A stretch of 32,000 bases of DNA from Idiomarina loihiensis L2TR (GTDB lineage Bacteria > Pseudomonadota > Gammaproteobacteria > Enterobacterales > Alteromonadaceae). The translations under genes were made by a program, and so were the position numbers. Shown in pieces: positions 9,367-14,870 of this stretch (its first letter is position 1; every line of letters begins with the position of its first letter). The stretch covers positions 2,760,001 to 2,792,000 of the forward strand of contig NC_006512.1 of the NCBI RefSeq assembly GCF_000008465.1, in the 5' to 3' direction. The notes beneath the pieces were generated by a model. That model did not search any database. It worked only from the letters and a program-made list of their open reading frames with translations, and was not told the origin of the DNA.

Positions 9367-10878
9367 CTAACGACGTCTGGCCGGCGGCAACGGATAACGC
9401 TCGGCCAGACTAATGCTTTCCCCGTCGGGCTTAATGACCCGGGCATGGCGACGGTTCAACCGACGCGGATCGGTGACACCACAAGAGTGCGCAATAATAT
9501 TAACGCCATACTCCATGTATTTGTGGTAGTTGGCGACACGCACCGATTTATCTTCTGGATCAAGCCCTCGCATTAACTTAGGGTCGTCGGTAGTGACTCC
9601 TGTTGGGCAAGTATTTTTATTACACTGCATAGCCTGAATACACCCCAGCGAGAACATAAAACCACGTGCAGAAGTGACAAAGTCGACTCCCATAGCAATG
9701 GCCCAGGCAACATCAGCAGGTGTGATCATTTTACCGGAGACAACCACGCGAATACGGCCGTGCAACCCAGCTTCGGTGAGCTTATCAATAAGCATAGGTA
9801 AGCTTTCAGTCACTCTCAGACCAACATAATCCATTAACGGCTGTGGTGCTGCGCCGGTTCCACCATCAGCGCTGTCCAGCGTAATAAAGTCTGGGGCGTA
9901 TTCTTCTCCACGGGTCAGGATGCAGTCGACCAACTCGTCAATCCAGGACGGGTCACCCATAACAAATTTAAAGCCGGTAGGTTTGCCGGTAATTTTGCGA
10001 ACTTTTTCAATGAAATCGAGCAGCTCTTCATTGTTACTGATTTCCGGATGTCGGTTCGGGCTAATGGCATCTTCGCCCTCCACAAGACCACGAATTTGTG
10101 CAATTTCCTTATTCACTTTTATGCCCGGCAAAATGCCACCTTTACCCGGCTTAGCGCCCTGACTCAGCTTTATTTCAAACATTTTCACATTGTCGTGGCG
10201 GCCCAGCTCAGCAAGCCGATCTTCATCAAGCCGCCCTTCTTTATCCCGTACCCCAAACTTCGCGGTGCCCATTTGGAAAACAATGTCGCAATGTCCCATC
10301 AAGTGGTAAGGCGATAAACCGCCCTCGCCGGTATTCAGCCAGCAGCCGGCCTTCGCCGCCCCCTGAGACAATGACTTAACCGCAACCGGTGACAAGGCAC
10401 CATAGCTCATCCCGGACACATGAAAGTACGAAACCGGAGAATAGGGCTTTTGACAATAAGGACCAATAATAACCGGCTCCGGCGATGTCGCCTGTTCAGC
10501 CATAGGTGGGTAAGGAGCGTTACTAAAAATGATGGTGCCGGTGCGGCTTAAATCTCGGGTGGAGCCGAAAGCCACGTTACGGTCCGCATTTTTTGCGGCA
10601 CGGTAGACCCAGCTTCGTTGGGCACGATTAAATGGCATTTCTTCGCGATCCATAGCAAAGAAATACTGGCGCATGAATTCCCCCATACGCTCGAATAAAT
10701 AGCGAAAGCGCCCCACAACCGGATAGTTATGGCGAATAGTATGCTTATTCTGGGTTTTATCGACGACATACATAACGCCAATAGAAATCACCAGCGTAAT
10801 AATAGCCAAAACAAAAATGGCGGCTAACCACTGCGCTAAAGTAAGTAAGGAATCCGTGCTAAAAACGTTGCCGCTCAT
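9367..10878 (-). CDS. FMN-binding glutamate synthase family protein (GltB domain-2-like, membrane anchored)
   Basis: 503 aa with one N-terminal TM helix followed by a glutamate-synthase FMN/Fe-S central-domain-like sequence (LSQGAKPG.GG.LPG.KV, DGGTGAAP, VSGK...D). Confidence 0.8.
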   Translation of the reverse strand: MSGNVFSTDSLLTLAQWLAAIFVLAIITLVISIGVMYVVDKTQNKHTIRHNYPVVGRFRYLFERMGEFMRQYFFAMDREEMPFNRAQRSWVYRAAKNADRNVAFGSTRDLSRTGTIIFSNAPYPPMAEQATSPEPVIIGPYCQKPYSPVSYFHVSGMSYGALSPVAVKSLSQGAAKAGCWLNTGEGGLSPYHLMGHCDIVFQMGTAKFGVRDKEGRLDEDRLAELGRHDNVKMFEIKLSQGAKPGKGGILPGIKVNKEIAQIRGLVEGEDAISPNRHPEISNNEELLDFIEKVRKITGKPTGFKFVMGDPSWIDELVDCILTRGEEYAPDFITLDSADGGTGAAPQPLMDYVGLRVTESLPMLIDKLTEAGLHGRIRVVVSGKMITPADVAWAIAMGVDFVTSARGFMFSLGCIQAMQCNKNTCPTGVTTDDPKLMRGLDPEDKSVRVANYHKYMEYGVNIIAHSCGVTDPRRLNRRHARVIKPDGESISLAERYPLPPARRR

Positions 10879-11009
10879 GGGTACCTAATACATTTCTAGT
10901 AATTGATAAGAGTATTAACGGTTAAAGCGACAAACAGATCAAGCACAGTGTCATCAAAATTTTGAAGAATGACGTATACTCTAAATAATTCAATAACAAG
11001 GAGAGACCT

Positions 11010-12143
11010 ATGTTCAATCCAAAGTTTGTTTTAACGGCAATATTGGCAGCTTCCGTAAGCGTGACGGCCACAGCCGAAGATGTCGAAACCGAACGCCATA
11101 AAGTTAGTGTCAGCACACTTGCGGATGGCTTTACTAACCCCTGGGGTATGACTTTTCTTCCTGACAAAAGCATTTTAGTTACCGAGCGCTCCGGCGACAT
11201 CTACTGGGTATCCGCCGACGGCAGTTATCGCGAAAAGATAAGCGGAACACCAGAGGTGGTAGCACAAGGCCAGGGTGGTATGCTGGATATTACCACTGAC
11301 CCTGACTTTGCTGAGAATAACTGGGTTTATATTAGCTACTCTGAAGCAGCACAGGACGGTGGGAAAGGGAATAGTACGGCCGTTATGCGGGCGAAACTTG
11401 ACGATAAAGAATTTACTGAGCAGGAAGTTGTTTTCCGTCAGGCACCTAAGTATGAAAGCAATAACCACTTTGGTTCCCGGTTAGTCTTTTCACCTGAAGG
11501 GCACTTATACATTACTTTAGGTGACCGCTATTCACGTATGGATGACGCACAGACACTGGATAACCATCACGGTAAAGTGATACGCATATGGCCTGATGGC
11601 AGCATCCCGAAAGACAACCCTTTTGTTAACAATGATAACGCTCTGGACGAAATCTGGTCTTACGGTCACCGCAATGTGCAGGGTGCCGATATTCATCCTG
11701 AAACGGGCGAGCTCTGGACTGTTGAACATGGCCCACAAGGCGGTGACGAAGTAAACATTCCGGAAGCTGGCAAAAATTACGGTTGGCCAGAAATTACTTA
11801 TGGTGTTGATTATGGCGGTGGCATTATCAGCGAAGACGCAGTCAAAGAAGGTATGGAGCAACCCTTCTATTACTGGGTACCCTCTATTGCCACGGCCGGA
11901 GCCACATTTTACAACGGCGATGCGTTTCCTGAGTGGAAAGGCGATTTCTTTGTCGCAGCTTTGAAAAGTTCACTGGTTGCTCGCCTGGACTTGTATGAAG
12001 GTCGTATGATGCATGAAGAGCGTTTATTTGAAGATGCTGTTGAAGCTCGTATTCGCGACATTAACCAAGGCCCTGACGGTTACCTCTATTTATTAACCGA
12101 CCAGCCTGACGGTGCCATCATTCAAATAAAACCGGCGGATTAA
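11010..12143 (+). CDS. yliI: Periplasmic PQQ-dependent aldose/sugar dehydrogenase (YliI/Asd type)
   Basis: Signal peptide (..SVSVTATA/ED). Colinear blocks match recalled E. coli YliI: PWGMTFLPD, GQGGMLD, NHFGSRLVF, IWSYGHRN.QG, EHGPQGGDE.N, GKNYGWP, IRD...GPDGYLYLLTD. AAGGAGAG SD upstream. Confidence 0.85.
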   Translation: MFNPKFVLTAILAASVSVTATAEDVETERHKVSVSTLADGFTNPWGMTFLPDKSILVTERSGDIYWVSADGSYREKISGTPEVVAQGQGGMLDITTDPDFAENNWVYISYSEAAQDGGKGNSTAVMRAKLDDKEFTEQEVVFRQAPKYESNNHFGSRLVFSPEGHLYITLGDRYSRMDDAQTLDNHHGKVIRIWPDGSIPKDNPFVNNDNALDEIWSYGHRNVQGADIHPETGELWTVEHGPQGGDEVNIPEAGKNYGWPEITYGVDYGGGIISEDAVKEGMEQPFYYWVPSIATAGATFYNGDAFPEWKGDFFVAALKSSLVARLDLYEGRMMHEERLFEDAVEARIRDINQGPDGYLYLLTDQPDGAIIQIKPAD

Positions 12144-12144
12144 T

Positions 12145-14178
12145 ATGTTGTACTCAGCTGTATTAAGAAAACTCACTTACACGGGGCTGCCTTTATTGGC
12201 GGCCTCTTTCGTTGTTCACTCCGCAGAAGTAGATGAAACCGTTGTTGTTACAGCGACACAAAGCGAGACGCCCTGGTTGACTACTGCGGCCAGTATCGAC
12301 CGCGTGAGCGTGGAAAACACCTTACCTTCTATGAAGATTGATGCTGGCGATGCCTTAGCCGGGGTGGCGGGCATTCAGGCTGACAACCGTTACAACTACG
12401 CACAGGATACACGCCTGGTGGTTCGGGGCTTTGGCTCGCGTGCGGCCTTTGGAGTAAGGGGTTTGCAGTTAAATGTCGACGGCATTCCGTTATCTATGCC
12501 CGACGGACAGGCACAAACTTCGAGCATTTTTCTCGACAGCATTGATTCGCTGGAAGTATTGCGCGGTCCATTAGCAACGCTGTACGGTAACTCCGGCGGT
12601 GGTGTGGTTGAATGGTTCAGCCGCAAGCCAACAGAAACCGCGTTGGAATGGGGTGGACAGTTCAGCGAAAATGACACTCAGCGGTACAATATTAATGCCC
12701 AGTGGGCAACCAACACCAATCAGCTGCAAATTTTAGCCTCAGATTTTCAGACCGACGGCCCGCGCAGGCATAACTCAGCCGAGCGCCAACAGCAGGCGAT
12801 ACGCTGGTATCATCAGTGGGACGAGCAGAACCGCTTTGTTATTCGTTACGACAATAACGATGCGCCATTATTGCAAGACCCCAGCGCACTAACGCCCGAA
12901 GACTGGCGCGAAGACCCAACTCAGACAGTACAACGGGCAATTGATTTCAACACGCGGAAAGATATTCACCACCGTCAGGGGTCTTTCAGCTGGTTTCATG
13001 AGAGCAACAATGGTGAGGGGTTACTCTCGCTGTGGCAGGGTGACCGCGATATAGAGCAGTTTCTGCCTTTTGCCGGTGACGACACAACAAGCTCGGGGGC
13101 CGTCATTGATGTCTCTCGTCAATTTGAAGGTGCTCATGCGCGCTGGCGTCAACGCGGAGTTAACTGGTCAGCAACCGTGGGAGCGCAATTAGAACGCCAG
13201 CAGGATCATCGCTTTGGTTATGTGAATGACAGCGGTGAAAAAGGTGACTTGCGCCGCAACGAATTCAACTGGATTGAAAATGCATCAGCTTATCTACGTT
13301 TTCAGTGGCAGTTATCGGAAGAGCTTTCAGCAACCGGCGGAGTTCGTTACAGCGACATCAATTATGAGGTAGAAGACTACTTTACCGATCTGGATAACTC
13401 CGATGACAGCGGCAGCAGCGACTTTAGTGAGACCACCGCAGCTGTTTCAGTTACCTGGCAGTTTCTGCCTACCTCGGCGACTTATCTGAGCATCGGGCAG
13501 GGATTTGAAACACCGACACTGACTGAGCTGGCATACCGAAATCAGGGCTCGGGCCTGAACCGCGAACTGGGTCCGTCCACGAATGATCAGTGGGAATGGG
13601 GTATCAAACACCAACTACCACAAGACTGGCGACTGCATTTCGCGTTCTTCGGTATTAAAAGCGAGGACGAAATACTGGTGGATCAGTCAAACGACGGTCG
13701 CACAACCTACCGCAACGCGTCGGAAACCTCGCGCGAAGGTGCTGAGCTCAGTATTAACGGCGCACTGACCCAGCAGTTAGATTTACTACTGTCATACAGT
13801 TACATCGATGCCACCTTTGATAATGGTCCGTTACAGGGGAATCAGTTGCCCGGCGTAGCAAAAAGTCAGGGCTATCTGCGTCTTAACTGGCAACCCACAG
13901 AGCAGTGGCTAGTTCAGTTAGCCGGCCAGTACCGTAACGAGACACCGGTTAATGATGCAAATGATACCTTTGCCCCGTCTTACACGACCTGGGATATTGC
14001 TGTAAGCCGCGATTGGCAATGGGCTAAGAGCGAGCTGGATGTGTGGGTACGGGTTGATAACATTACCGACAAAGACTACGTAGGAGCTGTTGTGGTTAAT
14101 CAGGGCAGTGGACGTTCATTTGAGCCCGCCGTAGGCCGGCAGGCAAGCGTCGGCATTAGCTGGCGCCGACGCTTTTAA
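12145..14178 (+). CDS. TonB-dependent receptor, YncD/PqqU-like (candidate PQQ importer)
   Basis: Signal peptide, plug domain and a beta-barrel ending in an aromatic residue (..ISWRRRF). Blocks NYAQD..L.VRGFGSR...G.RG..L.VDGIP..MPDGQ.QTS and DN..DK.YVG.V.VN...GR..EP..GR resemble my recollection of E. coli YncD. The ATG lies 1 nt after the dehydrogenase stop. Confidence 0.8.
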   Translation: MLYSAVLRKLTYTGLPLLAASFVVHSAEVDETVVVTATQSETPWLTTAASIDRVSVENTLPSMKIDAGDALAGVAGIQADNRYNYAQDTRLVVRGFGSRAAFGVRGLQLNVDGIPLSMPDGQAQTSSIFLDSIDSLEVLRGPLATLYGNSGGGVVEWFSRKPTETALEWGGQFSENDTQRYNINAQWATNTNQLQILASDFQTDGPRRHNSAERQQQAIRWYHQWDEQNRFVIRYDNNDAPLLQDPSALTPEDWREDPTQTVQRAIDFNTRKDIHHRQGSFSWFHESNNGEGLLSLWQGDRDIEQFLPFAGDDTTSSGAVIDVSRQFEGAHARWRQRGVNWSATVGAQLERQQDHRFGYVNDSGEKGDLRRNEFNWIENASAYLRFQWQLSEELSATGGVRYSDINYEVEDYFTDLDNSDDSGSSDFSETTAAVSVTWQFLPTSATYLSIGQGFETPTLTELAYRNQGSGLNRELGPSTNDQWEWGIKHQLPQDWRLHFAFFGIKSEDEILVDQSNDGRTTYRNASETSREGAELSINGALTQQLDLLLSYSYIDATFDNGPLQGNQLPGVAKSQGYLRLNWQPTEQWLVQLAGQYRNETPVNDANDTFAPSYTTWDIAVSRDWQWAKSELDVWVRVDNITDKDYVGAVVVNQGSGRSFEPAVGRQASVGISWRRRF

Positions 14179-14183
14179 GCCAA

Positions 14184-14870
14184 TTACAGGCTGGCTCTTA
14201 ACACATCGAGCAGGCGCTGTGCCGTCTGCTCAGATGAACCGGGATTCTGACCGGTAATTAACATACCGTCCTGAACGGCATATGCCTGCCAGTCATCCAC
14301 CTTACGATAATGGCCGCCTTTGGCGGTCAACTCGTCTTCCAGCAAGAACGGAACTACATTGGTCAGTTCTACTGCAGCCTCTTCGCTGTTACTAAAGCCA
14401 GTTACCGTGCGTCCCTGAACAATCGGGTCACCACTTGGCGATTTAGCATTTAACAACACGGCTGGGGCATGACAGACCGCAGCAACGGGTTTACCCTGAC
14501 TCCAGAAATGCTCAATCAGCTTAATTGAATGCTCGTTATTGGTTAAATCCCACAATGGTCCGTGACCACCCGGATAGAAAATTGCGTCGAAACCTTCCGG
14601 ATCAACTTCATCCAGCTTACAGGTCGTTTCTAATTTGTGCTGAGCCGTCTCATCTTTATCAAAGCGTTCTGTTGCTTCGGTTTGTGCATCTGGTGTGGTG
14701 CTGTTTGGATCAATCGGTGGCTTGCCACCCTTAGGCGATGCCAGAGTCACGTCCACACCGGAATCCGTAAAAACATAGTACGGAGCAGCAAACTCTTCTA
14801 CCCAGAAACCCGTTTTATGGTCTGTGTCACCAAGCTTATCGTGTGAGGTTAATACCATTAATACTTTCAC
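14184..14870 (-). CDS. DJ-1/PfpI family (class I glutamine amidotransferase-like) protein
   Basis: 228 aa with the nucleophile elbow AAVCHAP and the YPGGHG block. GTG start at 14870 with AGGAG 7 nt upstream. Confidence 0.8.
   Translation of the reverse strand: MKVLMVLTSHDKLGDTDHKTGFWVEEFAAPYYVFTDSGVDVTLASPKGGKPPIDPNSTTPDAQTEATERFDKDETAQHKLETTCKLDEVDPEGFDAIFYPGGHGPLWDLTNNEHSIKLIEHFWSQGKPVAAVCHAPAVLLNAKSPSGDPIVQGRTVTGFSNSEEAAVELTNVVPFLLEDELTAKGGHYRKVDDWQAYAVQDGMLITGQNPGSSEQTAQRLLDVLRASL

Follow-up and report, generated by a model that had tools for sequence, protein, structure and literature searches.

The outer-membrane receptor PqqU is known from experiment as an importer of pyrroloquinoline quinone (PQQ) (PMC12124388; bioRxiv 10.1101/2022.06.07.495086; bioRxiv 10.64898/2026.04.27.721047); its name dates from 2022, the publication of its structure and distribution from 2025. 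In Escherichia coli (YncD, b1451; structures 6v81 and 9c4o) pqqU is monocistronic and divergent from yncE, in a host that has no PQQ synthesis and possesses both of the PQQ enzymes Gcd and YliI. In Pseudomonas aeruginosa, PA2289 (PqqU) lies near gcd (PA2290) (bioRxiv 10.64898/2026.04.27.721047), and in four Burkholderiales pqqU stands beside pqqABCDE (Munder et al. 2025, fig. S11). Here we describe a locus of Idiomarina loihiensis L2TR, contained in a window of 32,000 nucleotides (the whole stretch of DNA that was analysed, 2,760,001-2,792,000 of the genome), in which the gene of a YliI-type PQQ-dependent dehydrogenase is followed on the + strand by that of a PqqU-type receptor, with 1 nt between the stop codon TAA of the first open reading frame (12141-12143) and the ATG of the second (12145), exactly as given in an initial annotation made from the sequence. 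We consider it likely that the two genes form a yliI-pqqU operon in a PQQ auxotroph, with PqqU importing the cofactor for both the dehydrogenase and Gcd.

The receptor shares with E. coli PqqU the plug and barrel, the TonB box, seven PQQ contacts and homology over the full length, and the dehydrogenase shares with E. coli YliI/Asd (2g8s) and the P. aeruginosa-type enzyme 7cdy the six-bladed GSDH fold family, the signal peptide, the catalytic His and the PQQ/Ca positions. Having Gcd, YliI and PqqU without PQQ synthesis, I. loihiensis thus holds the same set as E. coli. The arrangement differs, however: the E. coli genes are 640 kb apart (yliI at 878.7 kb, pqqU at 1,521 kb), as the initial annotation had correctly described them as unlinked, whereas pqqU of Idiomarina is the second gene of yliI-pqqU and the dehydrogenase gene appears coupled to that of its cofactor importer. 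The Idiomarina receptor is also placed in a clade sister to that of the enterobacterial PqqU and scores under the NF041535 cut-off. As in P. aeruginosa, the importer gene is close to a PQQ dehydrogenase gene, but the partner there is the eight-bladed membrane enzyme Gcd and the host makes PQQ, whereas in Idiomarina the partner is soluble and six-bladed and the host an auxotroph. With the Burkholderiales loci it has in common a synteny with PQQ genes; these link import to synthesis, while the Idiomarina locus links import to use, synthesis being absent. No yliI-pqqU operon, nor any operon of a GSDH gene and a TonB-dependent receptor (TBDR) gene, was found described in the literature searched, most subscription papers excepted, and a GSDH-TBDR operon is unmentioned in Hantke and Friz, in Munder et al., in the YncD structure paper, in the preprints on PA2289 and on six-bladed lanthanide enzymes, and in the PQQ proteomics paper. 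As to yncE, the divergent neighbour of E. coli pqqU (L006:4308-5369), its product is a beta-propeller annotated as 'PQQ-like domain-containing' and is not a known PQQ enzyme.

The receptor has a signal peptide of about residues 1-27, a Plug domain (PF07715, 54.7 bits), a TonB beta-barrel (PF00593, 133.9 bits) and, at residues 31-37 (12235-12255), the TonB box ETVVVTA, which aligns with QTMIVSA of YncD. Its top NCBIfam family is PqqU (NF041535, 490 bits), the next family reaching 149. The similarity to YncD given in the initial annotation proved to be real: phmmer matched the receptor to YncD (6v81) with an E-value of 2e-122 over residues 13-674, and to the PqqU-PQQ complex (9c4o) with 2e-120, while the next E. 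coli transporter, FhuA, stood at 3e-10. Among solved structures, the E-value of YncD leads the others by over 100 orders of magnitude. Over the full length of a MAFFT alignment, 38% of its residues are identical to those of E. coli PqqU. The signature published for PqqU consists of Y/F/W99, R304 and R365 in E. coli numbering, and Q84, Q121, K274 and R536 are further PQQ contacts (Munder et al. 2025, PMC12124388). The window receptor retains all seven, Y99 as Phe102, and the signature reads F102, R301 and R356 in its own numbering, likewise across the clade to which it belongs; throughout 97 PqqU-like receptors, positions Q84, Y/F99, R304, R365 and R536 always carry accepted residues, whereas Q121 varies in two and K274 in three. 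A profile of PqqU-type receptors gave the window receptor 976 bits and the other TBDRs of the same genome 113 at most; no other PqqU-like gene was found in I. loihiensis. In a FastTree phylogeny of 105 rows, which held no LutH-type lanthanide receptors, the 97 PqqU-like proteins formed a group apart (99*) from eight further TBDRs of I. loihiensis, placing the receptor in the PqqU clade and not in another TBDR subfamily. Public records label the Idiomarinaceae receptors merely 'TonB-dependent receptor' or 'hypothetical protein', and the matches listed by a profile search of a 5.8-billion protein set were close relatives and enterobacterial PqqU only. On these grounds we read the receptor as a PqqU (YncD) homologue, predicted from its sequence to transport PQQ.

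The dehydrogenase matches the Pfam family GSDH (PF07995) with 472 bits over profile positions 2-331 of 332. Among solved structures it comes closest to 7cdy and E. coli YliI (2g8s), with E-values of about 1e-94 (4e-94 for 2g8s), and it is 43% identical to E. coli YliI (sequence from NC_000913). The N-terminus reads as a Sec signal, with a hydrophobic stretch that ends in ...TATA/ED. In an alignment of 21 orthologues, E. coli YliI among them, H153, R221, N222, E239, H240, E247, Y257, R347 and R349 are invariant, and the equivalents of H153, E247 and Y257 in E. coli YliI are H147 (of the NHFG motif), E240 and Y250. By analogy with the soluble glucose dehydrogenase and Asd structures, we take the invariant residues to be the catalytic base and the PQQ/Ca ligands, and the protein would accordingly be expected to work as an enzyme. 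The conservation of the catalytic His, the sole residue role confirmed there, is documented in PMC4133262. A search of the genome gave the operon dehydrogenase as the only GSDH gene of I. loihiensis.

The window contains no gene of pqq biosynthesis, as the initial annotation had stated, and the same holds for the complete genome (a single contig of 2,839,318 bp, 99.9% complete), in which a search for the pathway was negative for pqqB, pqqC and pqqE alike, with no match to PqqB TIGR02108, PqqC/TenA PF03070 or PqqE TIGR02109; the PqqC model TIGR02111 did detect the gene elsewhere, in G150 and G248. With PQQ enzymes and without these three genes, I. loihiensis would be a PQQ auxotroph, judging by its gene content. 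The operon dehydrogenase is not the sole client of the cofactor, because a membrane-bound Gcd-type dehydrogenase of 776 aa, of the glucose/quinate/shikimate family, is encoded elsewhere in the genome (846371-848701; TIGR03074, 1145 bits, above cut-off). The TBDR gene 3 kb downstream of this Gcd-type gene was considered as a second PQQ receptor and rejected, its product being a siderophore receptor of the FauA/FhuE type.

The linkage of the two genes is conserved well beyond I. loihiensis. A PqqU-like gene was found in 11 of 100 genomes of the same GTDB family, spread over 6 genera, and in 9 of the 10 PqqU-positive genomes other than our own the receptor gene is immediately preceded, on its own strand, by a GSDH (YliI-type) gene. 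A second sample, made up of the best 80 PqqU loci with one genome per species, showed the same arrangement in Idiomarina (3), Aliidiomarina, Alishewanella, Rheinheimera (2) and one metagenome-assembled genome. The pair-bearing receptors constitute one starred clade of the FastTree phylogeny, with 23 rows from 21 distinct genomes, and the dehydrogenase is directly upstream on the common strand in 17 of these 21 (Idiomarina, Aliidiomarina, Alishewanella, Rheinheimera and relatives), the members without it being Alkalimonas delamerensis, Marinimicrobium and two Cellvibrio-like genomes. Of 17 loci measured, 16 have a stop-to-start distance of -1 to +8 nt and one has 19 nt. Identity to the window is 95% for the related locus of Idiomarina ramblicola. 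Across the pair loci it falls to 43-50% (dehydrogenase) and 30-47% (receptor); since order, strand and tight junction recur across many genera at 30-50% protein identity, the adjacency is beyond chance. All ten tested relatives with the co-directional pair lack pqqC, whereas in the two tested genomes that have it (G150 and G248) the pair is replaced by convergent genes or by a neighbour that is only distantly GSDH-like. E. coli PqqU falls in the sister clade of 71 rows, where no YliI linkage was seen. In Alkalimonas delamerensis (L009 / L025) the dehydrogenase gene has been lost from upstream of pqqU, its place being taken by a divergent HAD hydrolase gene, and two GSDH genes lie elsewhere; the pair is kept in a congener (G090, L008).

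The features of the locus are collected in Table 1. Since a divergent gene upstream and a convergent gene downstream bound the pair, it makes up a two-gene unit, and it displays the features of a bicistronic operon, namely a common strand, an intergenic gap too short for a promoter or terminator, and a conserved linkage, from which co-transcription would follow. The geometry of the GGCGGA at the end of the dehydrogenase gene and of the 1-nt gap fits translational coupling of the receptor to the dehydrogenase gene. Upstream of the latter, the block TGACGTATACT (10970-10980), which contains TATACT, is kept in four Idiomarina loci and in part also in two further genera, and could represent a -10 element or an operator. 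A consensus scan also gave TTGAAG-16-AATAAT at 10962-10989, a match not above shuffle expectation. Fur-type control was considered and rejected: the nearest Fur-box-like stretch, at about 10897-10919, fits approximately 10 of 19 positions by eye and is closer to the divergent gene. A GC-rich hairpin of 9 bp followed by a T-rich run is present at 12183-12216, within the signal-peptide coding part of the receptor gene and 40 nt past its start; the count of hairpins with a T-run in the region is not above shuffle expectation. The product of the divergent gene is a stand-alone protein of 503 aa with Glu_synthase as its sole domain, and an OxyR-like LysR gene adjoins it.

Table 1. Coordinates (window numbering), strand and basis of the features of the yliI-pqqU locus of I. 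loihiensis. FMN, flavin mononucleotide.
Feature	Position	Strand	Basis
Divergent FMN Glu_synthase-domain gene, upstream boundary	9367-10878	-	PF01645
Putative promoter region of the pair	10950..10990	+	Block TGACGTATACT and consensus-scan match; function predicted
Shine-Dalgarno sequence AAGGAGAG of the dehydrogenase gene	10998..11005	+	Read from sequence; 4 nt before ATG 11010
YliI/Asd-type soluble PQQ-dependent aldose sugar dehydrogenase, 377 aa, signal peptide	11010..12143	+	PF07995, YliI homology
Shine-Dalgarno-like GGCGGA within the 3' end of the dehydrogenase gene	12134..12139	+	Read from sequence; 5 nt before receptor ATG
PqqU (YncD)-type TonB-dependent PQQ receptor, 677 aa	12145..14178	+	Plug and barrel, NF041535, YncD homology
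Convergent DJ-1/PfpI gene, 3' boundary, outside the system	14184..14870	-	Domain match

The proposal from which this work started, that an operon joins a PQQ apoenzyme to the importer of its cofactor, is supported by the placement of the receptor in the PqqU clade, its contact residues, the lack of biosynthesis genes and the conserved linkage. We envisage that the dehydrogenase is exported by the Sec route as a soluble aldose dehydrogenase of the Ca/PQQ type and is made as an apoenzyme, and that pqqU would share an mRNA with the dehydrogenase gene, and probably the translating ribosomes as well, given the 1-nt gap and the internal Shine-Dalgarno-like sequence. PqqU would capture nanomolar PQQ released by other microbes and deliver it to the periplasm, where it would load both the dehydrogenase and the membrane-bound Gcd-type enzyme. 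No inner-membrane step would be needed, because both clients work in the periplasm, and an outer-membrane importer would suffice for an auxotroph, because PQQ acts there. The placement of the importer gene behind that of the client would bring about their joint expression.

Elsewhere in the class, PqqU keeps other company. Besides I. loihiensis, a class sample of 400 genomes contains 34 with a PqqU-like gene; the pair is convergent in G150, a distant six-bladed GSDH-like gene lies upstream of pqqU in G248 and G163, a Gcd-type gene lies directly upstream in G276, and an eight-bladed gene is 1.2 kb off in G149. A Gcd-type eight-bladed gene abuts pqqU on the common strand in three Acinetobacter (L031, L036, L038), one Serratia (L098) and the G276 locus (G276:C37:16393-20357), and distant six-bladed GSDH-like proteins abut it in about eight loci of the 80-locus set. 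Because linkages to YliI-type, Gcd-type and distant six-bladed enzymes are all seen, PqqU has been joined repeatedly to different PQQ enzymes. The six-bladed neighbours (L019:5604-6968 in G248, L020:2537-3799 in G163, L088, L092, L083, L044 and L082) come from Burkholderiales, Pseudomonas and other lineages, and one of them also matches DUF7133; they may be CcPDH-like, possibly of the lanthanide-type six-bladed class of a 2026 preprint.

The same genomes bear on a published survey that searched for PF01011, PF13360 and PF13570 only; for 33% of the PqqU carriers it reported no PQQ enzyme (Munder et al. 2025, PMC12124388). Among our 34 PqqU-positive genomes, 12 have no eight-bladed match at an E-value of 1e-30 or better, and nine of these 12 have a strong GSDH and two more a weak one. 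At the same threshold, GSDH is present in 26/34 PqqU-positive and in 4/19 PqqU-negative genomes of other families of the class, and also in 13/21 PqqU-negative genomes of the window's own family; these counts are descriptive only, because they are small and come from related genomes. Six-bladed GSDH probably accounts for many of the PqqU carriers reported without a PQQ enzyme in 2025. Two genera of the same family, which lack both PqqU and pqqC, each have a GSDH-type gene (product about 500 aa) arranged divergently beside an uncharacterised TonB receptor (L115:4024-8023 in G002 and L118:4042-7612 in G006). These receptors share 49% identity, NF041535 gives 74 bits for one and no match at E 1e-20 for the other, and both are candidate PQQ importers of a second type.

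Some of the observations weigh against the operon as we interpret it. The pairing is restricted to one clade, the same tight pair occurring in just 1/34 of the other PqqU-positive genomes of the class sample (G147). Thirteen relatives (within G001-G030, loci L104-L123) have a strong YliI-type gene and neither PqqU nor pqqC, so such an enzyme can be kept without PqqU, and porin diffusion or another importer are possible routes of PQQ in these bacteria. Consensus scans for promoters and terminators gave counts at or below shuffle expectation. The 490 bits of the receptor compare with an equivalog cut-off of 1200 for NF041535, a cut-off that is essentially enterobacterial, since it is passed by 0/401 sampled Gammaproteobacteria and by the E. 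coli control alone. Moreover, lanthanide TonB-dependent transporters have been reported with PqqU as their best PDB match and mis-annotated as YncD (bioRxiv 10.64898/2026.07.10.737718).

Other explanations of the locus have to be considered in this light. In one of them, which we hold to be quite unlikely, the dehydrogenase is a periplasmic acceptor or store of PQQ, made in step with the receptor and passing the cofactor on to Gcd. The conserved layout, with its apparent translational coupling, would suit such a role, and so would the strong GSDH in nine of the 12 carriers without an eight-bladed enzyme; furthermore, the PQQ site of E. coli YliI is reportedly very exposed (Southall 2006, as cited in PMC4133262), and that enzyme is not known to have a physiological substrate. 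Nevertheless, E. coli PqqU works although yliI is unlinked, and all catalytic residues of the Idiomarina dehydrogenase are conserved, as in a working enzyme. A wider version, in which the YliI-type protein is a dedicated acceptor kept in a fixed ratio with PqqU and buffers PQQ for Gcd, and in which six-bladed GSDH rather than the eight-bladed quinoproteins has been the main evolutionary partner of PqqU, is likewise unlikely in our opinion.

It is highly unlikely that the receptor imports a cargo other than PQQ, be it a lanthanide or metallophore, as for LutH-like receptors, or a sugar or glycan oxidised by the dehydrogenase. The likeness of the lanthanide transporters to PqqU, the score under the equivalog cut-off and the noncommittal labels of the Idiomarinaceae receptors would all allow it. 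Retention of the contact residues matters here precisely because lanthanide receptors resemble PqqU and yet reportedly lack the PQQ-binding residues (bioRxiv 10.64898/2026.07.10.737718), whereas the window receptor keeps all seven, and on this basis we rejected the lanthanide-receptor reading. In addition, YliI-type enzymes are Ca/PQQ enzymes, small aldoses need no TonB transporter, and the occurrence of the operon in genomes without pqqC fits a need for the cofactor. Least credible of all is that the genes are related in function without being a regulatory unit, with a 1-nt gap owed to a compact 2.8-Mb genome and a receptor promoter inside the upstream gene: pqqU is expressed alone in E. coli and most other PqqU carriers and PA2289 is reported to be constitutive (bioRxiv 10.64898/2026.04.27.721047), but order, strand and the tight junction persist in genomes of 2.4 to 4.7 Mb despite low protein identity.

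The apoenzyme-importer operon is a sound but unsurprising genomic confirmation of a known link: enzyme and importer are ordinary representatives of families already known, and experiments in E. coli have established the link between the two. For bacteria other than E. coli and P. aeruginosa, the connection of PqqU to particular clients had rested on co-occurrence, and this locus adds clean gene-neighbourhood evidence, in the form of a conserved yliI-pqqU operon, with probable coupling, in marine and alkaliphilic Alteromonadales-type bacteria. It allows a whole clade labelled just 'TonB-dependent receptor' to be annotated as PQQ importers, and it exposes a gap in the 2025 survey, in which six-bladed GSDH was not among the Pfams searched. 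Finally, I. loihiensis offers an organism with a small genome in which the physiological role of YliI could be studied.

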